Below are positions 29,017-41,566 of a DNA stretch of 64,000 nt, piece by piece. The position numbers were made by a program, and so were the translations under genes. Within the stretch, counting starts at the first letter, position 1; each line of letters opens with the position of its first letter. This DNA is from an uncultured delta proteobacterium (GTDB lineage: Bacteria > Myxococcota > Myxococcia > Myxococcales > Anaeromyxobacteraceae): NCBI GenBank assembly GCA_963814585.1, contig CAWFDF010000008.1:64001-128000 (forward strand), in the 5' to 3' direction. The notes beneath the pieces were generated by a model that did no database searches, was not told the origin of the DNA, and saw nothing but the letters and a program-made list of their open reading frames with translations.

Positions 29017-29239
29017 GACCTTCCGCTGAGGTGTGGCGGGAAGCACGGAGGAGCGGGCGGCGGGTCGGGCGGCGGGCTCCCAGGGCGGGCACCCTTCGTT
29101 GTCAGACCACCAAGCTAATCCCCCGGTTCATCGACGCGAGCCGGCCGGGGGGGAGTCGTCGACGCGCGCATGGCATCCCCGCGCGTGAACGGGAACGGTC
29201 TTGCCTGGAGCGTGAGCTCCCGGGCGGAGGTACGGAGAG

Positions 29240-32006
<2,767 letters not shown>

Positions 32007-32297: not shown

Positions 32298-35200
32298 TCA
32301 ATGGAAGTTCCTGGCCCGCTCCCCCACCGTGGGCGCGAAGGCCAGCGGGGCCAGGGCGTCCACCCGCACGTTGACCACCCGCCCGTTCCGCTCCAGCCGG
32401 CCCCTCGCCAGCAGGAACGGCGAGCCGCGCACCACCGGCCGGTACCGCTCGTAGACGTCCGGCATGACCACCAGGTTGGCGATGCCGGTCTCGTCCTCCA
32501 GCGAGACGAAGACGATGCCGTGGGCGGTCTCCGGCCGCTGCCGCACGATCACCAGCCCGGCCACCTCCACCGGCGCGCGGTCGTCGAGACGGCCGAGCTC
32601 GCTGGCGGTCCGCACCCGGCCGCCCGCCAGCGTGGGGCGGACCAGGGCCATGGGGTGCCCGCGCACCGAGAGGCCGGTGGTGGCGTAGTCCCCCTGCACC
32701 AGCTCGGCGGCGCCGGCCGGCTCGAGCCGCGCCTCCGGCTCGGCCGGCGCCAGCCCGGCGAACAGGTCGCCCGTGTCCGGCTGCGCCGGCTGGGCCATGG
32801 TCTTCCAGACCGCCTCGCGCCGCTCCGGCTCCAGACCCTTCAGCGTCCCGGCCTCGGCCAGCCGCGTGGCCCAGGCGCGCGAGAGCCCGGCGCGCAGGCA
32901 GAGCGCCGCCACCGAGCCGAAGGCGCCATCCCGTCGCGCCGCCACCACCGCCTCGCCCACCTCGCGCGGCAGCCCCTGCACCAGGTGGAGCCCGAGCCGG
33001 ACGACCGGCGGCTCCCCCGGCGCCGGAGGCCGCCCCGGCGCCAGCCCCTCCAGCGAGGTCTCCCAGCCGCTCCAGTCCACGTCGACGCCTCGCACCTCCA
33101 CCCCATGCCGCTTGGCGTCCTCGACCAGCGTGTGGGGCGCGTAGAAGCCCATGGGCTGGCTGTTGACGAGCGCGGCGGCGAAGATCGCCGGGTGGTAGCA
33201 CTTCAGCCAGGCCGAGGCGTAGACCAGCAGCGCGAACGACGCGGCGTGCGACTCGGGGAAGCCGTAGCCTGCGAAGCCGAGCAGGTGCGTGAAGATCTTC
33301 TCGGCGTCGGCAGCGGGGATGCGCCGCTCGGCCATGCCGTCCAGCAGCCGCGCCTTCATGGCCGCCAGCCGCTGGTGCGAGCGCCGGTGGGTCATGACCC
33401 GCCGCAGCTCGTCGGCCTCGCCCGGCGTGAACCCGGCCGCCACCACGGCCAGCCGCATGGCCTGCTCCTGGAAGAGCGGGATGCCGAGGGTGCGTGCCAG
33501 CACCGCCTCGAGCGGCGGGTACGGGTAGGTCACCGGCTCCCGCCCATCGCGCCGGCGCAGGAACGGATGGACCATGCCGCCCTGGATCGGCCCGGGCCGG
33601 ATGATGGCCACCGAGATGACCAGGTCGTAGAAGCAGCGCGGCTGGAGCCGCGGCAGGAGTCCCATCTGCGCCCGCGACTCGATCTGGAAGACGCCGACGG
33701 TGTCGGCGCGGCTGGCCATGTCGTAGACCGCCGGATCCTCGGCCGGGATGGTGGCGAGCGAGTCGGGCCAGGGCACCGGCGTCGGGTGGGCCGGCGCCGG
33801 CCGGTGGCGCGCCAGCAGGTCGAGGGCGCGAGACAGGGCGGTGAGCATCCCCAGGGCCAGCAGGTCGACCTTGAGCAGGTCGAGCGCCGCCAGGTCGTCC
33901 TTGTCCCACTGGACGATGGTCCGGCCCGGCATGGCCGCCGGCTCGATGGGGACGGTCTCGGCGAGCGGCCTCCGGGTGATGACGAAGCCGCCGACGTGGA
34001 TGGAGAGGTGGCGCGGGAAGCCCTGCAGCTCGCCGGCCAGCGCCAGCACCTGCCTCACCCGCGGGGCCTGGCCGGGATCGAGCCCGGCCTGCGCCAGCGT
34101 GGCGTCGGTGATGGCAGCCGGGTCCTCGTGGTGCGAGACCGCCTTGGTGAGCCGGTCCACCTGTGAGAGCGAGAGGCCGAGCGCCTTGCCGACGTCGCGC
34201 AGCGCCGAGCGGGTCCGGTAGGTGATCACCTCGCAGACCATCCCGGCGTGGGCCCGTCCGTACCGCTCGTAGACGTACTGCAGCACCTCCTCGCGCCGCT
34301 CGTGCTCGAAGTCGACGTCGATGTCGGGCGGCTCGCCCCGCTCCGCCGAGATGAACCGCTCGAAGAGCAGCCCCATCCGGACCGGGTCGATGGAGGTGAC
34401 CCCGAGCACGTAGCAGACGGCCGAGTTGGCGGCGCTCCCCCGCCCCTGGCAGAGGATGCCGCGCTCCCGCGCGAACCGGACCACGTCCCAGACCGTGAGG
34501 AAGTAGCTGGCGTAGCCGAGCCGATCGACCAGGGCCAGCTCCTTCTCGAGCTGCCGCGCCACGTCGGCCGGCGGCTCGCCGCCGTAGCGCCAGCGCGCCC
34601 CCTCCCGCACCAGGGTGCGCAAGAGCGCCATGCCGGTGAGCGGCTCGTCGGTCGGGGCTGGGGACGCGACCGGGATCGCGAATGGGGTCGTGGCCGCGGC
34701 AGTGGTCGTGGCAATGGTCGTGGCCGCGGCAATGGCCGCGATCGATGCCGTGGCAGTGGGTGCGATCGAGGCCGGGGCCGCAGCCGGGATAACCCCCGCC
34801 CCGACCCCCGCCCCGCGCGTGGTCCGCAGCCGGGTGACCCGCTGCGGCGCCACCGCCCGCTCCGCCTGCGCCGGGCTCGAGGTCGAGACCGCGGCCCCCG
34901 CCGCCAGCGTGGCGGTGTCGACCCGCACCGGCGGCAGCGGGTGCTCGCCGCGGATCTCCTCCATGCGGAACCGGCACCGCGCCGCGATCTCCACCGCGGT
35001 CTCCAGCCCCTCCGGGAAGTCGGCCCAGAGCCTGGCCATCTCCTCCGGTCCCTTGAGCGTCCGCTCGGCGTTGGGGGCGAGCCGGCGGCCGGCCCTGTCC
35101 ACCGTGGTCCCGAGCCGGACGCAGGTGAGCACGTCCTGCAGCACCTGCCGGCGCCGCTCGTGGGTCTCCACGTCGTTCACCACCGCCACCGGGATGGCGA

Positions 35201-35750
35201 GCCGCTCCCCGATGGCGCGGGAGGCCGCCACCCGCGCCTCGTCGCCGGCCACGTGGTGGCGCGCCACCGTCAGCGCCAGCCGGCGGCCGAAGAGCTCGCG
35301 CAGCTGGGCGGCCGCCTCGCCGTCGTGGCCGCCGTAGAGCGCGAAGAGGCCGCCGGCCCGCTCCCCCAGCAGCCGCTGCGCCACCCGCACCGCCTCGGGC
35401 TCGCGCCGCCCCGCCGCCGCGGCCACCGGATCGCCGCCGTGGGCCGCGGTGATGAGCCGGCAGAGGTTGGCGTACCCGTCGCGGTCGAGCGCCAGCAAGG
35501 TCAGCCAGCCGGGCCGGCCGCGCCCGAGATCGGCCACCGCCAGCTCGGCGCCGACGAGGAGCGGAAAGCCGAGCCGCTTCGCCTCGACGTGAGCGCGGAC
35601 GATCCCCTGGAGCCCGTTCCGGTCGGAGAGGGCCAGCGCCTGCAGGCCGAGCTCGGCGGCGCGCGCCACCAGCTCCTCGGGGTGGCTCGCCCCCTCCAGG
35701 AAGGAGAAGCAGGAGCGGCAGCGCAGCTCGGCGTAGCGTGGCGTCGCCAT
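32298..35750 (-). CDS. dnaE2: Error-prone DNA polymerase DnaE2 (ImuC)
   Basis: YAELRCRSCFSFLEGASHPEEL, GRGSAANS, PPDIDVDFEH, FQIESRAQ, YGFPESHAASFA, QRPETA, C-terminal RARNFH. Confidence 0.97.
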   Translation of the reverse strand: MATPRYAELRCRSCFSFLEGASHPEELVARAAELGLQALALSDRNGLQGIVRAHVEAKRLGFPLLVGAELAVADLGRGRPGWLTLLALDRDGYANLCRLITAAHGGDPVAAAAGRREPEAVRVAQRLLGERAGGLFALYGGHDGEAAAQLRELFGRRLALTVARHHVAGDEARVAASRAIGERLAIPVAVVNDVETHERRRQVLQDVLTCVRLGTTVDRAGRRLAPNAERTLKGPEEMARLWADFPEGLETAVEIAARCRFRMEEIRGEHPLPPVRVDTATLAAGAAVSTSSPAQAERAVAPQRVTRLRTTRGAGVGAGVIPAAAPASIAPTATASIAAIAAATTIATTTAAATTPFAIPVASPAPTDEPLTGMALLRTLVREGARWRYGGEPPADVARQLEKELALVDRLGYASYFLTVWDVVRFARERGILCQGRGSAANSAVCYVLGVTSIDPVRMGLLFERFISAERGEPPDIDVDFEHERREEVLQYVYERYGRAHAGMVCEVITYRTRSALRDVGKALGLSLSQVDRLTKAVSHHEDPAAITDATLAQAGLDPGQAPRVRQVLALAGELQGFPRHLSIHVGGFVITRRPLAETVPIEPAAMPGRTIVQWDKDDLAALDLLKVDLLALGMLTALSRALDLLARHRPAPAHPTPVPWPDSLATIPAEDPAVYDMASRADTVGVFQIESRAQMGLLPRLQPRCFYDLVISVAIIRPGPIQGGMVHPFLRRRDGREPVTYPYPPLEAVLARTLGIPLFQEQAMRLAVVAAGFTPGEADELRRVMTHRRSHQRLAAMKARLLDGMAERRIPAADAEKIFTHLLGFAGYGFPESHAASFALLVYASAWLKCYHPAIFAAALVNSQPMGFYAPHTLVEDAKRHGVEVRGVDVDWSGWETSLEGLAPGRPPAPGEPPVVRLGLHLVQGLPREVGEAVVAARRDGAFGSVAALCLRAGLSRAWATRLAEAGTLKGLEPERREAVWKTMAQPAQPDTGDLFAGLAPAEPEARLEPAGAAELVQGDYATTGLSVRGHPMALVRPTLAGGRVRTASELGRLDDRAPVEVAGLVIVRQRPETAHGIVFVSLEDETGIANLVVMPDVYERYRPVVRGSPFLLARGRLERNGRVVNVRVDALAPLAFAPTVGERARNFH

Positions 35751-37447
35751 CAGTCGAAGAAGCCGTGGAGGTGGAGCCGGCCATCGGCCCCGTCCCGGTA
35801 GATCCAGCAGTCGCCCAGCCCCTCGATGCGGGCCCGGTAGTAGTCGCGATCGAAGGGGGCGCTCCACCACTCGCCGCGCAGTCGCTCCGGCCCCTCGAAG
35901 GAGAGGACCGCGTGCACCTCGGCCCCGAGCCGCACCGCGCTCACCCGTCCACCCTCGCCGGTGGCCACCAGCGGACGAGGCTCGCCGAGCAGCCGGGTCG
36001 GCCGTGGCGCCGGCTCCTCCGCGGCCGGCCTCTCCGGCGCATCCGCGCCACGCCGCGCCGCCGCCTCCGCATGCCGCCGCGCCAGCGCCCCGGGCTGCCG
36101 CGCCTCCAAGCCGGACTGCCGCGCCAGCGCCCCGGGCTGCCGCGCCTCCAAGCCGGACTGCCGCGCCAGCGCCCCGGGCTGCCGCGCCCCGGCCCGGAAC
36201 GGCACCGGGCGCCAGGCTGCCTCGGGCCGCCAGCGCGCCACCGGCTCGGCGGCCACCACCGCGCCGTCCCCGAGCCGCCCGGAGAGCCGGGCCAGGACCG
36301 TCTCCAGCGCCGCCTGCGCCTCGGGCCGGTCGCCCAGCGCCAGCTGCGCCTCGCGAACCACCGCCACCTCGACCGCGGCCAGCTTCACGCCGACCACCGC
36401 CCCGGGCAGCCGCAGCGCCAGCACCCGCTCCCGCCAGGCCAGCAGCCAGCGCGCCCCCACCGCCGAGGGCTGCGCCAGCGGGATGCTGAGCCGCTCCTCG
36501 CCGCGCGGGTCGAGCAGGAGCGTCACGGTGAGCCGGCTGGCTCCGAGCCCGCGCCCGCAGAGCCGCGCCGCCACCCGATTGGCCAGCCGCTTGAGCACGA
36601 AGAGCACCGGCTCGGCCCCGTCGGCCGGCCCCTCCAGCTCGATGGCCTCCTCGGGGAGCGTCTGGGGGAGGTACGGGATGAGCGGCGTGGGGTCGTCGCC
36701 GCGGGCCAGCCGCGCCGCCGCCGCGCCGGCCGGCCCGAAGCGGAGCGCCAGCCCCTCGGGCGGCAGCCGGGCCAGCTCCCCGACGCACGCCACGCCGACC
36801 GCGCCCAGCTTCGCCACCACCACCGGCCCGAGCCCGAGCGCCTCGAGCGGAAGCGGCGCCAGCGCCCGCGCCTCCTCGCCCGGCGGCACCAGCATCACCT
36901 CCGCGCCGGACGCCGCCTCCATGCCGTGCCGGGCCAGCGCCAGCGCCGGCCCGCGCCCGCAGGCCACCGCCGCCCGGACCGTGAAGCCGAGCTCTCCGGC
37001 CAGCGCCCGGGCCTGGCTCGCCAGCCGCCGCTCCGGCTCCGGCCCCGGCTCGCGGCCGCACAGCAGGTGGGCGGCGCTGGCGTCGAGCAGCAGCGCGTCG
37101 GGGCCGACCACCTCCACCGCCGGAGCCACCGCCAGCAGCGCCTCGGCCAGGGCGCGCAGCGCGGCCAGATCCGCGGCGGGCGCGTGCTTCACGGCCTGGA
37201 GCCGGCCGCAGGCGGCCAGCGCCTCGGCCAGCGTGTCGCCGGGCCGGACCCCCGCCGCAAGCGCCGTGGTCGAGCAGCAGAGCACCCGCCCCTCATCCAC
37301 CACCGCCACCGGCCGGTCGCCGATCGCCTCTCCCTCCTCCCGACCGCGCGCCAGCCGCTGGATTGGCAGCCCAGGCACGCAGAGCGCCAGCAGGCGGGGG
37401 CCGGCCGGCGGGCCATCGAGTGCGAGGGTGGAGGCTGCGCGTGGCAT
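35750..37447 (-). CDS. imuB: ImuB Y-family polymerase-like accessory protein
   Basis: ALAAGVRPGDTLAEA, DALLLD, LAPLPLEAL, AQLAL clamp-motif-like, GPERLRGEWW...RDYY...WIYRD...LHGFFD; overlaps dnaE2 start. Confidence 0.93.
   Translation of the reverse strand: MPRAASTLALDGPPAGPRLLALCVPGLPIQRLARGREEGEAIGDRPVAVVDEGRVLCCSTTALAAGVRPGDTLAEALAACGRLQAVKHAPAADLAALRALAEALLAVAPAVEVVGPDALLLDASAAHLLCGREPGPEPERRLASQARALAGELGFTVRAAVACGRGPALALARHGMEAASGAEVMLVPPGEEARALAPLPLEALGLGPVVVAKLGAVGVACVGELARLPPEGLALRFGPAGAAAARLARGDDPTPLIPYLPQTLPEEAIELEGPADGAEPVLFVLKRLANRVAARLCGRGLGASRLTVTLLLDPRGEERLSIPLAQPSAVGARWLLAWRERVLALRLPGAVVGVKLAAVEVAVVREAQLALGDRPEAQAALETVLARLSGRLGDGAVVAAEPVARWRPEAAWRPVPFRAGARQPGALARQSGLEARQPGALARQSGLEARQPGALARRHAEAAARRGADAPERPAAEEPAPRPTRLLGEPRPLVATGEGGRVSAVRLGAEVHAVLSFEGPERLRGEWWSAPFDRDYYRARIEGLGDCWIYRDGADGRLHLHGFFD
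36076..36188. repeat. 42-bp perfect tandem repeat, about 2.7 copies, in frame in imuB
   Basis: gccgcgccagcgccccgggctgccgcgcctccaagccggact; encodes (ARQPGALARQSGLE)n. Confidence 0.95.
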
Positions 37448-37508
37448 GGACCGGCTCCGGACCGACGAGGCTACTGCTCGTTCGTTCAGTTATCAAGCCG
37501 GTCTGACA
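37443..37508 (-). promoter_or_regulatory. SOS promoter copy A (imuB-dnaE2) with LexA box at 37474-37489
   Basis: Minus strand TTGATA-N17-TAGCCT; the spacer contains CTGCTCGTTCGTTCAG, close to the Myxococcus LexA consensus CTRHAMRYBYGTTCAGS. Confidence 0.85.
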
Positions 37509-37562
37509 GTCTCCTTGGGGCGCGCGCGCGGGCGCCTTCAGTAACCCAAACGCGGTCCCTCC

Positions 37563-37592
37563 TTCGCGAGTTCTGACGTCAGAACTCGCGAA
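37563..37592. repeat. Perfect 30-bp palindrome
   Basis: TTCGCGAGTTCTGAC|GTCAGAACTCGCGAA. Confidence 0.95.
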
Positions 37593-37653
37593 TGGGGGAG
37601 GCCGGGGACTCTAACGAGGGAGGTCGAGTCGGCCTGAAGCCAGGACAGTTTCA

Positions 37654-37671
37654 AGTCCAGACGTCTGGACT
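37654..37671. repeat. Perfect 18-bp palindrome
   Basis: AGTCCAGAC|GTCTGGACT. Confidence 0.95.
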
Positions 37672-37742
37672 CCAGGACGACCGCCCTGAAATGCCGGCCC
37701 CGCACCGCGCCCCGTCCCGAGGTCGCCACCCAGAGGTCGGGG

Positions 37743-37775
37743 TGGACAGCATAGCTATGTCAGAGGTATGCTGTC
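37743..37775 (+). promoter_or_regulatory. TA promoter with overlapping inverted-repeat operator
   Basis: TGGACA-N18-TATGCT; GACAGCATA-N13-TATGCTGTC inverted repeat plus internal CATAGCTATG palindrome. Confidence 0.65.
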
Positions 37776-37778
37776 GCC

Positions 37779-38102
37779 GTGAAGCTGGCCGCTGATCAGG
37801 AGACTGCCGCCTGGCTGGCGACCAGGCCGGCGATGCCGTGGGACGCCGGCAACAGCACCAAGAGCGCGGCGAAGCACGGGTTCCACGTCGCGGATGTGGG
37901 GTCGCTCCTGGCCGGGGCGGTGCTGTTCGCAGGTCGAATCGTCGAGCCGGCGCACGAGGAGGCGAGGTACCTGCTCCTCGGCGTCGCCTCGGACGGTCGG
38001 CACACTGCGCTGGTCTTCGCCCGGCGTGCCGATCTGCTGCGGCCGATCAGCTGCCGCGCGATGAGGAAGAAGGAAAAGGAGGCCCACGATGAAGCGACGT
38101 AG
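37779..38102 (+). CDS. brnT: BrnT-family ribonuclease toxin (DUF497)
   Basis: WDAGNSTKSAAKHG, HEEARYLLLG, VFARRADLLRPISCRAMRKKE. Confidence 0.85.
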   Translation: MKLAADQETAAWLATRPAMPWDAGNSTKSAAKHGFHVADVGSLLAGAVLFAGRIVEPAHEEARYLLLGVASDGRHTALVFARRADLLRPISCRAMRKKEKEAHDEAT

Positions 38103-38355
38103 CACCAAGAAGCCGAAGATGAAGAACGCCGCCAGCGGGCGGGATGCGACGCTGCGCTCGTTCGAGGAGCGGGACCTTGGCGACGACATCAAGGCGGCGG
38201 GGACGGCCGTCGTCGTTCGTCCCCAGCGGCCCACGTCGATCCTGCTCAGCGACGAGCTGAAGGCCCAGCTTCGCCGGCGCGGTGCGGAGCTGGGGGTTGG
38301 CTACCAGACGGCCGCCAAGATGATCCTCTCCAGGTACGTCAACGCCAAGCTGTAG
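38089..38355 (+). CDS. BrnA/CopG-like ribbon-helix-helix antitoxin
   Basis: PTSILLSDELKAQLRRRGAELGVGYQTAAKMIL; overlaps toxin 3' end. Confidence 0.8.
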   Translation: MKRRSTKKPKMKNAASGRDATLRSFEERDLGDDIKAAGTAVVVRPQRPTSILLSDELKAQLRRRGAELGVGYQTAAKMILSRYVNAKL

Positions 38356-38442
38356 CTTGGTAGATGATGTCCGCCACCGCGCCCCGCGCCCCGCGCCCGT
38401 CGCGCCCGGACGGCGGCATCTCACCCAGCTTGAGCCGCCGAT

Positions 38443-38754
38443 CTACTCGGACCCCGGGGTCCGGTCGTCTCTGGCCGGCACAGCCTGGGCCTTCCTGGCT
38501 CGGCTCAGCCATGGCTCGGCAAGGCGCAGCGCGAGGAACTCAGCGCCGAGCACCACGAAAAGAAGCGAGACGAGATACGGCAGATAGCCGACCGCGAAGT
38601 TGACGACCTGGAAGCCAGGCGCCCGAGCGTATTCGTCGATTGACGTTGCAGTTGCAGCGAAGCGAGACAACGCCCAGAGGACGAGAGCGCACAGACCGAG
38701 CCAGGCCACGCCCGCGATGAGGAATACCGCACGCCTCACCTGAATCACGGACAT
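38443..38754 (-). CDS. Small two-TM membrane protein
   Basis: MSVIQVRRAVFLIAGVAWLGLCAL...; two hydrophobic helices; visibly lower GC; GAGG RBS. Confidence 0.6.
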   Translation of the reverse strand: MSVIQVRRAVFLIAGVAWLGLCALVLWALSRFAATATSIDEYARAPGFQVVNFAVGYLPYLVSLLFVVLGAEFLALRLAEPWLSRARKAQAVPARDDRTPGSE

Positions 38755-38773
38755 CGCCCTCACCCTCGCGGGC

Positions 38774-40805
38774 CTACCGCTCCGCGAAGACGTACTCGTG
38801 CTGGGCGTCGCGGGTGATGAGCGTGCGCTTGCCCCCCGCGCCACCGACCACCAGCTCGACCCCGCTCATGCCCGGCACGGTGGTGATGAAGGAGACGGTG
38901 CCGTCCGGGTTCTTGCGGCTGGCCACCTCGCTGCGCCACTCGCCGAAGTCGAAGCTGGTGACGCCGCCCACCTGGCTCACGGCGATCTCACCGAGCGCGT
39001 CGTTGGCGTAGCGCCCGGCCAGCCTGCCGGCCTCGGCCGGGTCGGCCGGCACGGTGAGCAGCTTCCGCTCGGCGGCCAGCTGCTGGAAGAAGGTCCTGGC
39101 CTGCGCCGCCAGGTCGGCGTCGGCCTCCGGCTTGCCGTCGAAGAGCACCTCCAGCAGCTTGCGCCGGTAGAGCGTGCGCAGGATCCAGCCCGGGTCGGCG
39201 TTGGTCAGGATCACCGCCCCGACGCCCTGCTCCGGCAGCCAGATCATGTCGCTGTGGTAGCCGATCATGTCGCCCCCGTGGTGGACCACCGGGATGCCGT
39301 ACTTGGTGTCGACCATGAGTCCCATGCCGTAGCTGTCGTCCTTGCCGATGGAGACCTGCGGCGTGCGCCGCTCCAGCAGCGGCGCCTTGGCGATGTAGCG
39401 CCTCCCGCCCGGCAGCACCCCCTCGGCCAGCTCGATCGAGACGTAGCGCAGCATGTCCCGGACGCTGCTCCAGGCGGCGCCGGCCGGCCGCAGCGGGATG
39501 ATCGCAGTAGTTGACCGCCATGAGCGCCTTGGCCGGTCGCCCATCGATGTCGGGGGCGTGGGCGGTGGCGTGGTTCCCCTTCAAGGCCCGGGCGTAGTCG
39601 AAGGTGGTGGCCTTCATGCCGAGCGGCTCGAAGACACGGGTCCGCATCGCCGCGTCGTAGGCGGCCCCGAGCTCAAGCTTCGGGTAGAGCGCGCGGCCGC
39701 CGGTGAAGCCGCCGGCGCCGGCCATGCGGGTTGGAGTACTGGAACATCTCGCCGAACTTGCTGGTCGGCTGCATGGTCCCGAGCGTGGCCATCGCCTCTG
39801 CGGGCGTCACGCCCTGGTACTCGAACAGCCACTCGAGGTCCTGGCGCGGCAGGCCGGTGCAGGCGCAGATCAGGTGCTTCACCAGCACCTGACGCGTCGT
39901 CTCCGGCGTCGCCCAGCTTGAAGGTCGGCAGCAGGCTGGTGACCGGCGTCTCCCAGGTCGAGCTTCTTCTCGTCGACCAGCTTGGCCAGCATCAGCGTGG
40001 TCAGCGCCTTGGTGTTGGAGGCGATCATGAAGAGCGTGTCGGCGTCCGGCCTCTGCGGCTTGCCCGAGCTCGCGCACGCCGAAGCCGCCTGCGAAGACCG
40101 ATCTCGCCGTCCTGCACGAGGCCGACCGCCACGCCCGGCACGCCCAGTTCCTTCATGGCCGTCTCGACCCAGGCGTGCGAGCCGCGCCAGCCGCTCGGCG
40201 TCGAGCCGGTGGGCCTTCTTGCCGGCGAACGACTCTCGGGCGTAGCCCTTGGGGAGGAGCCGGCCGAAGACCAGCGAGACGGCCGCGCTCCGCTTCTCGC
40301 CGACCGCCTGGGCCATGTCGTAGATGATCACGGTCCAGACCTCGCCGGCGCGCCGGGAGTAGGCGGCGACGTCGCGCTTCTCGTTGGGGGAGGTCTGGTA
40401 GTCGTAGGCGCGTCGGTTGGTCCAGCCGTCCTTGTCGGGGGCGTCGGTGGTCACCTTGAGCGGCCAGCGGGCCTCGGGCTTGTAGGCGGCCCAGGCGGCG
40501 GCCACCGCGGCGTCGGCGTCTGGCGCCTTCACGTCGACGAAGGCGAGGTAGGAGCCCCCCTCCGGCGCCTCGAGGATGGTGGCCGGGCCGCGCACGGCGA
40601 TCGACCAGCCGGCCGGGGCGATGAAGGTGGCCCCCTCGACCGTGCTCCGCGGCGTGTCGGCGGCCAGCAGCTCGGGCGGCGGCGGCGCTGGGGGTGGCGC
40701 CACCGCGGGCGGCGCGGTGGCCGCGGGCGGCTCCGGAAGGACGGAGGGCGCCGGGGTGGAGCAGGCGCAGAGTGCAGCGACACATCCAGTGAGAAATGCG
40801 CGCAT
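38774..40805 (-). CDS. Serine hydrolase, beta-lactamase/class C-like lipoprotein (several apparent frameshifts 39500-40180)
   Basis: ALCA-C lipobox; FMIASNTK (SxxK), FQYSN (YxN), VFEPLGM, HHGG. Confidence 0.88.
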
Positions 40806-40862
40806 GGGGGGAACCGTAGCGAGGCGGACGAAAGGTGTAAAGTCCTGGCGCCGCGAGCCCCA

Positions 40863-41505
40863 TCACGCAGCGTGAATACCACCCGCCCGCGCCGGCCTGG
40901 CCTGGCCATCGGCCCGCCGCGCCAGGATCCGCCCCTGCTCGGTGCGCAGGTCGAGCCGCACCAGCGCCGGCGGGCGCAGCGAGGCGCCGGGGGACGAGAG
41001 CCAGAGCCCCACGGCCCCGCCCTGCTCCGCCGCCGTGGTGAGCCGCCGGAGCGCCACGTCGGCGCCGCGGAACGGCCGGCCGCGCGGCACGTCGATGGCC
41101 ACCAGCGCGAAGGCCCCGGAGCCGAGCAGCGCCTCGCACGCCCAGAGCGCCAGCCGGAGGCCTTCCTCGCCGCCGGGCGGCCGGACGATGAGGAGCCGAC
41201 CGAGGTCGACGCCGAGCGCCACCGCCGCCGGAGGGTAGAGCTCGTCGCGCCCGTCGACGAAGGCGGCCAGCGCGCCTCCCGGGAGGCGGGCGATGGTCGA
41301 GAGCGCCACCGCGGTCTTGCCGCTCGAGGCCCCGCCGCGCAGCTCGGAGAGGGCGCCGCAGGGGAAGCCGCCCGGCAGGAGCGCGTCGATGGCCTCGAGC
41401 CCGCTCGCCAGCTGCCCGTCGCGCCGCGCCGGGCGGCGCTCGATGCGCTTGATCTCGTCGCGGAGGCGCGCGAGCAGGGCTGGGGTGGGATTCTGCTTTC
41501 GGCAT
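40863..41505 (-). CDS. imuA: ImuA RecA/SulA-like protein (ATG at 41505 is one base out of frame; likely extra A near 41498)
   Basis: LLARLRDEIKRIE...SGLEAIDALLPGGFPCGALSELRGGASSGKT...FVDGRDELYPPAAVALGVDLGRLLIVRP...WACEALLGSGAFALVAID...LRRLTTAAE. Confidence 0.88.
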
Positions 41506-41566
41506 GGACCGGCTCCGACCAGGCGACGTTACTGCTCACCCGTTCAGTTATCAAGCCGATCCGACA
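41501..41566 (-). promoter_or_regulatory. SOS promoter copy B (imuA) with LexA box at 41532-41547
   Basis: TTGATA-N17-TAACGT; box CTGCTCACCCGTTCAG; 55/66 identical, ungapped, to 37443-37508. Confidence 0.85.

Follow-up and report, generated by a model that had tools for sequence, protein, structure and literature searches.

The DNA analyzed here (the window) is a stretch of 64,000 nucleotides (nt) from an uncultured delta proteobacterium of the family Anaeromyxobacteraceae, phylum Myxococcota (GenBank assembly GCA_963814585.1, contig CAWFDF010000008.1, positions 64,001 to 128,000). It carries the mutasome genes imuA, imuB and dnaE2 in a split arrangement: imuA stands apart, and imuB-dnaE2 is preceded by a copy of the imuA promoter together with its ribosome-binding site and about the first ten codons of the gene. 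A segmental duplication with a later in-frame deletion is the likely source of this copy, which is predicted to keep both halves of the cassette damage-inducible via a LexA site and a likely PafBC-type site; we would give this reading a probability of about 65%. The window's own genome (G000) has a size of 4.34 Mb, and its host group comprises sediment bacteria.

The Split Cassette and the Repeated Module

The features that constitute the two halves are as follows.

41501..41566, minus strand: P_A, promoter module of imuA, ancestral, conserved in position and architecture at 36 of the 37 unsplit family loci that were examined; its elements are TGTCGG (41566-41561), the -35 hexamer TTGATA (41554-41549), the LexA-type box (41547-41532), the -10 hexamer TAACGT (41531-41526), GGAG (41516-41513) and ATG (41505)
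40863..41505, minus strand: imuA, RecA-like (PF00154 above cut-off), whose last codons contain the decayed relic of the old overlapping imuB start
37443..37508, minus strand: P_B, the copied module, found before imuB in six genomes of the clade; its elements are TGTCAG (37508-37503; PafBC-type, followed by TA after 10 nt), the -35 hexamer TTGATA (37496-37491), the LexA-type box (37489-37474), the -10 hexamer TAGCCT (37473-37468), GGAG (37458-37455) and ATG (37447)
37415..37447, minus strand: approximately the first 10-11 codons of imuB, which stem from the 5' end of imuA
35750..37447, minus strand: imuB, Y-family-like, with an IMS domain (PF00817 above cut-off); its stop overlaps the dnaE2 start
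32298..35750, minus strand: dnaE2, error-prone DNA polymerase (NF004225, 1275.6 bits against a cut-off of 939)

The imuA stop (40863) lies 3.4 kb from the imuB start (37447), as a preliminary description of this DNA had stated, and the identity it had counted by hand was reproduced: 37443-37508 and 41501-41566 agree, ungapped, at 55 of 66 positions. When the segment upstream of imuB was compared with the whole genome by blastn, the other copy was retrieved with E 4e-14 and the next of the matches listed had E 0.01; the genome thus holds two strong copies of the module. The window contains the pattern CTGAAC-N7-CAGTA twice, and none of 100 shuffled sequences contains it. P_A and P_B do not differ in TTGATA-N17-TAnnnT, in the ends of the box or in GGAG, which agrees with the earlier observation that mismatches spare these elements. 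The copy had been described as ending at the start codon. It does run from the promoter through the ATG, but the likeness extends over about the first ten codons of the gene; at its 5' edge the repeat begins with a further conserved element, TGTC(A/G)G.

As for the proteins, the best NCBIfam match of ImuA is NF033429, under its cut-off (58 against 150), and the scores of ImuB with Pol IV models are far under theirs; the closest relatives share 77-84% ImuB identity. The mean pairwise ratio of nonsynonymous to synonymous substitution rates (dN/dS), a crude estimate for GC-rich genes, is 0.34 for imuA, 0.39 for imuB and 0.32 for dnaE2 in the split genomes, and 0.33, 0.29 and 0.36, respectively, in the unsplit ones. 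The similarity of these values suggests that both halves are maintained by purifying selection. DnaE2 has a long, Ala/Thr-rich low-complexity insert between the PHP and polymerase domains (window 34250-34730), the length of which varies among relatives, and a short tandem repeat occurs in ImuB near 36090-36190.

Reliability of the Assembly

One extra base at 41491 puts the ATG at 41505 out of frame. It is missing from the contigs of all four public sediment or wetland sequencing runs in which it could be compared, and the imuA frameshift in the window is an assembly error; a pseudogene status of imuA was rejected on the same ground and because the orthologs are intact. Several indels in the hydrolase gene of the spacer are likewise missing from the contigs of one to three public runs each, and single-base indels also break nrdJ (window 29240-32006), which makes pseudogene calls in this genome unreliable. 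These many indels, and the fact that none of the single public contigs spans the whole stretch, speak for a misassembly. Against it, public contigs bridge the junctions of P_B with brnT (37416-37787), of imuB with P_B (37061-37523) and of imuA with the cargo (40724-40902), and in the related genomes G001, G005 and G009 both promoters and both genes stand on one contig. A dispersed repeat without any link to the SOS response is at variance with the presence of only two copies in the genome. We therefore regard an artifact of either kind as extremely improbable. Elsewhere in the genome, a region with low-GC genes unlike the rest (C13:144300-151500) is possibly a foreign island or a binning contamination.

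Distribution of the Split and Origin of the Copy

Ninety-two family genomes were searched, and 72 of them, in which N-terminal matches of both imuA and imuB were present, could be scored. The two genes are adjacent in 65 of these genomes and split in seven, which shows that the arrangement of the window is not standard in the family. In five split genomes one contig holds both halves, at a distance of 0.4-3.5 kb (G000, G001, G005, G009, G014), and in two they are on different contigs (G007, G012). A promoter directly precedes imuB in all seven, and a promoter also precedes imuA in all six that belong to the window's genus (G000, G001, G005, G007, G009, G012); in G014, which belongs to another genus, the imuA 5' end is off its contig. 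Two matches to a strict pattern were obtained, among the 92 genomes, only in G000, G001, G005, G007 and G009. No second box was seen at 12 adjacent junctions, chosen among those with longer gaps and read by eye. An apparent third promoter copy in G007 was dismissed: its two contig ends represent alternative paths between one and the same cargo gene and P_B, most simply strain variants. In three relatives with large genomes (loci L103-L105 of G053, G041 and G048) imuA and imuB are adjacent, dnaE2 is outside the fetched flank, and TGTCAG stands 19 nt before the box, the same distance as in the window.

Unsplit relatives have a single promoter, and in most of them the imuB start lies 11 nt ahead of the imuA stop (ATG-N5-TGA, e.g., ATGCGGCCTGA). 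The split genomes retain the native imuA end, in which the old imuB ATG is intact in G007, G009, G012 and G014 and decayed in G000, G001 and G005. Throughout the split clade the ImuB N-terminus is ImuA-like (in G012, ImuB begins with MSLADPTPAL and ImuA with MPHADPTPAL), and the ImuA-derived start meets the ImuB body at the same position in six of six clade genomes. The six P_B copies cluster together (94/97) within the imuA promoters of the clade, and the identity between A and B promoters is the same within genomes (0.749) as between them (0.747). These two results together point to one old event; ongoing gene conversion between P_A and P_B, which was considered as well, left no signal in the identity values. 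The clade of eight genomes is supported in the imuA tree (100/98) and in the thioredoxin tree (100/100), and the grouping of the six split genomes as one clade is not rejected by the approximately unbiased test (p-AU 0.076 for the concatenated genes, 0.31-0.52 for single genes).

The imuB promoter is thus a copy of the imuA promoter, as had been suggested, although a bare promoter copy does not account for the chimeric ImuB N-terminus. Since this N-terminus is ImuA-derived, the other possibility named at the outset, a cassette duplication with reciprocal loss, fits better, and a tandem duplication with an in-frame deletion would need the fewest steps to reach the chimeric start. An attachment site of an integrative element was rejected by reasoning: its use would duplicate the site yet leave imuA and imuB contiguous, unlike what is seen.

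Outside the clade, the imuB promoter and first codons of G014 group with the imuA promoter of its genus-mate G023 (82/83, a modest value), and the G014 lexA falls outside the window clade. At the order level, 47 genomes of other families were taken from search hits and so do not represent a random sample; 46 of their junctions could be scored. In G037, a 17-nt exact copy of the genome's own imuA promoter core precedes imuB, with a spacer of about 250 nt; in G039 there is a box before imuB without a recognizable copy; three other junctions have gaps of more than 100 nt and no CTGAAC box. Judging from these sequences, the promoter copies in G014 and G037 likely arose independently of the window clade.

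The LexA-Type Box

In 34 of 36 unsplit imuA promoters the box fills the spacer between the -35 and -10 elements, with TAnnnT at 17- or 18-nt spacing, which supports a real sigma70 promoter. The box had initially been referred to the Myxococcus consensus CTRHAMRYBYGTTCAGS, and that part of the proposal did not stand: the strict consensus has no match in the G000 genome. What stood is a half-site characteristic of the lineage. The genome has lexA, and the half-sites CTGAAC and GTTCAG occur in all 19 family lexA promoters read; in the five order-level genomes read, lexA promoters have at most one half-site within 75 nt. Besides lexA, ruvC (named from its translated start) is preceded by a LexA-type box, and one recA has two GTTCAG half-sites upstream. 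The other recA (C12:436118-436903, minus strand) has neither a LexA half-site nor a TGTCAG motif in the 330 nt upstream; the presence of a second gene recalls the recA1/recA2 pair of Myxococcus xanthus.

Two further observations concern boxes of this kind. Upstream of recN in the family (loci L154-L176) there are two conserved CTGAA half-sites about 15 nt apart, possibly a second LexA arrangement. At C11:21622-21680 of G000 (L185), in low-GC DNA next to a gene of the AAA_21/AbiEii type, TGTCAGA-N6-TTGATCTGAAC-N7-CAG reproduces the architecture of the imuA promoter; no gene is obvious downstream of it.

The PafBC-Type Element and Its Candidate Regulon

The mycobacterial PafBC consensus is tGTCgg(N10)tA(N3)T, in which GTC is read by R46 and R50 of PafB (PMC8635444; this and the papers cited below are drawn on through excerpts). 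P_B contains TGTCAG-N10-TA and P_A contains TGTCGG-N10-TA, i.e., the GTC triplet stands before a TA at the 10-nt distance in both. TGTCRG-N10-TA is present in 29 of 36 unsplit imuA promoters, in six of six P_B and in two of six P_A of the split genomes. Of the family recN promoters for which upstream sequence was available, 15 of 16 contain a related form, TGTCRG-N10-xAnnnT; at the order level, TGTCRG occurs in seven of 13 recN promoters.

In the G000 genome TGTCAG-N10-TA occurs 12 times, against 2-5 times for spacings of 7-9 and 11-13 nt; upstream of genes, as delimited by a crude gene finder, the numbers are 8 and 0-1. The looser TGTCRG-N10-YA is not clearly enriched (63 against 11-56). The targets in G000 include recA, ssb, recJ, nrdJ, imuB and four genes of unknown function. 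Sites of the form TGTCAG-N10-(T/C)A at C4:223212, C4:228821, C14:511876 and on C12 (L159) precede recA, ssb, recJ and recN and are conserved in other genera as well, and CA variants precede genes of a PolB-type exonuclease and a PD-(D/E)XK nuclease. One site lies in the window itself and would belong to the same predicted regulon.

29100..29117, plus strand: TGTCAG-N10-TA upstream of nrdJ (class II ribonucleotide reductase)

In G019, from another genus, 20 matches were found and 17 downstream open reading frames were scanned; among the targets are imuA, recA, ssb, RNase H, a DHH protein similar to RecJ, a metallophosphoesterase and orthologs (64% identity) of two unnamed G000 targets. Over 13 family genomes the motif had 151 matches, against 55 for the reversed control. 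The small conserved proteins encoded at L179:1093-1569 (minus strand) and L177:1344-1751 (minus strand), with orthologs at L230 and L231, have no Pfam family; the motif accompanies this pair in two genera, one of the proteins has CxxC pairs and is encoded near a pafBC-like gene pair, and both are candidates for new DNA-damage genes.

A possible reader of the motif is also encoded. WYL genes are present as two tandem pairs; of the pair on C12, the first gene aligns with solved PafB (E 8e-22 and 2e-13) and retains R-x-F-E-R. Altogether, we consider the TGTCAG motif to mark a candidate PafBC-type regulon in Anaeromyxobacteraceae and other Myxococcales.

The Spacer Between the Halves

The spacer of the window contains the following features.

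38774..40805, minus strand: serine hydrolase gene of the beta-lactamase family, cargo, common to G001 and G005, broken by single-base indels in the assembly
38443..38751, minus strand: gene of a small predicted membrane protein without Pfam family, cargo, also in G012
38089-38355, plus strand: likely ribbon-helix-helix antitoxin gene, cargo, also in G012
37779-38102, plus strand: BrnT toxin gene, cargo, divergent from P_B, also in G012
37743-37772: sigma70-like promoter of the BrnT pair, inside a hairpin
37551..37599: dispersed palindromic hairpin repeat with the core TTCTGACGTCAGAA, just upstream of P_B, with five more copies in the genome

Cargo differs among the split genomes and often comprises a toxin-antitoxin pair: the spacer holds a hydrolase gene in G001, a penicillin amidase gene in G007, a PIN-ribbon-helix-helix pair with the hydrolase in G005, the BrnT pair with other genes in G012 and AbiEii in G014, and in G009 it is 335 nt long and non-coding. 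The hairpin repeat stands just upstream of P_B in G000, G001, G005 and G009 and further up in G012. A second short palindrome family, with the core GTCCARACGTYTGGAC, is represented at window 37653-37670, and copies of the two families were found on contigs C3, C4, C9, C10, C11, C12 and C14; in G005 the first family flanks cargo modules three times, which suggests that it takes part in the turnover of cargo. The interval upstream of P_A has received insertions too (G006, G007, G008), e.g., in G008, where an inserted gene of an AlkZ-like DNA glycosylase separates thioredoxin from the imuA promoter (L039:5416-6537). Since this interval also takes insertions, a free intergenic site probably acquires cargo as a matter of course.

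Read-through from imuA into imuB seems unlikely because of the distance of 3.4 kb, the antisense toxin-antitoxin operon and the strong hairpin. A scan for intrinsic terminators between the halves gave two candidates against 1.2 expected, and a strict rule missed both promoters. Metatranscriptome contigs (three runs, a small share) cover mainly the thioredoxin gene and leave imuA and imuB uncovered.

Proposed History and Alternatives

The following history would account for these data. A segment comprising the promoter, imuA and the 5' part of imuB would have been duplicated in tandem, once, in the ancestor of the clade; the downstream copy would then have lost imuA from about codon 11 on, and the upstream copy the imuB stump. 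With its own start and promoter before imuB, the junction could tolerate insertions, variable cargo would accumulate, and the copy would thereby become indispensable. As to regulation, the sigma70 promoter TTGATA-N17-TAnnnT is predicted to be repressed by LexA bound in its spacer, and an overlapping start about 23 nt upstream to be activated by a PafBC-like WYL heterodimer at TGTCAG. Upon DNA damage, LexA cleavage should free both sigma70 promoters and PafBC, activated by single-stranded DNA, should drive the upstream start, so that imuA and imuB-dnaE2 would be induced in parallel and translated from separate ribosome sites. With the loss of the start-stop overlap, ImuB translation would no longer be coupled to that of ImuA.

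A number of observations weigh against this reading. The unsplit G002 falls inside the clade with no resolved position, and the best concatenated tree splits up the six split genomes. A search for an imuB stump after the imuA stop gave three weak local alignments among 42 pairs, none convincing, which makes a tandem duplication indistinguishable from an insertion with subsequent capture of the promoter. On the side of LexA, each box deviates from the M. xanthus consensus at two of 17 positions (hand comparison), and of the similar boxes in M. xanthus that of recN is not bound by LexA and that of pafBC is bound weakly (PMC9705874). On the side of PafBC, imuA and imuB (TAACTG) as well as recA (TACAAC) lack the final T of tA(N3)T, for which reason we class both copies as PafBC-like and not as PafBC-dependent members; order-level imuA promoters often have no TGTCRG or have it at other spacings. 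Of the 12 genome matches of the motif, one falls within 23S rRNA and another within low-GC coding sequence, and nine of the 17 scanned open reading frames of G019 are without a Pfam family, some of the sites being likely due to chance. Finally, in the M. xanthus lexA mutant ImuB is down and the PafBC homologs are up (PMC12288472), which is unexpected under simple activation by PafBC.

The missing stump leaves room for the reverse order of events, in which a polar insertion (the hairpin repeat or a toxin-antitoxin module) first broke the overlap and an ectopic copy of promoter, ribosome site and start codons was then selected for imuB-dnaE2 expression. It would lead to the same end state and the same predicted regulation as the tandem duplication, and it agrees with the hairpin repeat near P_B in five genomes and with the BrnT, PIN-ribbon-helix-helix or AbiEii modules in the spacers of G000, G012, G005 and G014. 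We find it rather unlikely, considering that G009 and G037 are split without coding cargo, that a non-tandem copying step of about 100 nt would have to land in frame, and that cargo varies among genomes, yet P_B has a single origin. The split may also be adaptive, with ImuA dosed apart from ImuB/DnaE2, P_B kept under strict dual control, P_A retuned and this state reached repeatedly. The likely independent copies in G014 and G037 and the separate box in G039 are in line with this, as are the invariance of TGTCAGACCGGCTTGATAACTG in all six P_B, where P_A vary in TGTCAG, -35 or -10, and the report that M. xanthus ImuA inhibits RecA1 and is induced before imuB and dnaE2 (10.1101/2020.12.14.422803). 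Still, the split is rare (seven of 72 family genomes; two of 46 order-level junctions), protein-level constraint is unchanged, the first base of TGTCAG is variable in the unsplit sister G002 too, and close kin are not independent cases. The only sign of divergence is the greater drift of the imuA copies. Both copies of G000 retain every element, which makes co-regulation as likely as the separate tuning proposed in the preliminary description; an adaptive split is on this evidence somewhat unlikely.

The duplication could have proceeded as described and TGTCAG nevertheless be the site of another regulator, e.g., an XRE protein such as DdiA, or an upstream promoter element, the control being exerted by LexA with or without another factor. 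The missing final T and the differing spacing in other families would fit, and so would a discrepancy in M. xanthus proteomics (PMC12288472); with two WYL gene pairs in the genome, even a WYL reader is ambiguous. On the other side stand the exact N10 spacing with xAnnnT at recN, the enrichment specific to this spacing, the repair-gene targets in two genera and the conserved PafB arginines, in view of which we hold a regulator other than PafBC to be fairly improbable. We retain the segmental duplication, with LexA-type and PafBC-type control of both halves, as the preferred reading.

Relation to Known Systems and Biological Meaning

Almost all configurations of the cassette exist, including those in which each gene is at its own locus with its own SOS box (PMC3901139). 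The split cassettes of the Mycobacterium tuberculosis type (imuA'-imuB and dnaE2) consist of the same three genes in units that each have an SOS box (PMC3901139). In the window, by contrast, the break lies between imuA and imuB-dnaE2, the order is kept within one locus, and the second promoter is a recognizable copy with the ribosome site and ImuA codons fused to ImuB. In M. xanthus, a member of the same phylum with the same type of LexA box, independent promoters have been claimed for imuA, imuB and dnaE2, with boxes before imuB and dnaE2 (10.1101/2020.12.14.422803); another account calls imuA-imuB an operon and has dnaE2 activated through DdiA (PMC12288472). The excerpted parts of these two accounts describe no copied promoter. 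Our searches for a copied promoter-plus-start module, and for promoter duplication with operon splitting and LexA, retrieved no report, with the reservation that the cassette survey of Erill 2006, represented here only through excerpts of PMC3901139 and PMC10421592, may include the former; the matches listed for Anaeromyxobacter LexA/imuA contained nothing specific.

The second regulatory signal also has a counterpart. Mycobacterial imuA'B is under both LexA and PafBC (PMC8682763), and in the dual control of mycobacterial recA and imuA'B, as in the window, TGTCRG 10 nt before TA is combined with a LexA box (PMC8682763; PMC8635444); G000 further resembles mycobacteria in having a PafB-like WYL protein with residues equivalent to R46/R50 and repair genes as targets. 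Unlike in mycobacteria, the signals of the window lie within about 45 nt and overlap -35 and -10, position 5 of the consensus is A, and its final T varies. PafBC-dependent promoters are further characterized by the lack of a -35 element, a feature that is confounded here by the overlapping sigma70 promoter. No Myxococcota PafBC regulon is reported in the excerpts of the literature on PafBC and Myxococcota that our search returned. The study of M. xanthus that inferred additional regulators of ImuB left the PafBC homologs of that species aside (PMC12288472). The predicted PafBC-type regulation is, in our opinion, the more valuable part of these results.

The locus would provide a clear and repeated record of how an operon can be split without loss of regulation, by copying the promoter, ribosome site and start codons together, with subsequent decay of the former overlap and insertions into the gap. 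The P_A/P_B pairs of six genomes offer a ready test of separate tuning of ImuA and ImuB/DnaE2. We tentatively put forward, well short of even confidence, a wider scheme: a PafBC-type regulon beside LexA in Myxococcota (recA, recN, recJ, ssb, nrdJ and the mutasome), and the module of about 100 nt as a portable dual switch, repeatedly grafted onto imuB with start codons and uncoupling the RecA-inhibiting ImuA from the mutagenic polymerase. Should TGTCAG prove to be a PafBC site, Myxococcota would share a mechanism that has been known chiefly from actinobacteria. For M. xanthus there would then be a candidate for the missing regulator that acts independently of LexA and DdiA, and the question of such regulators would become testable in a genetically tractable model, with named target promoters.

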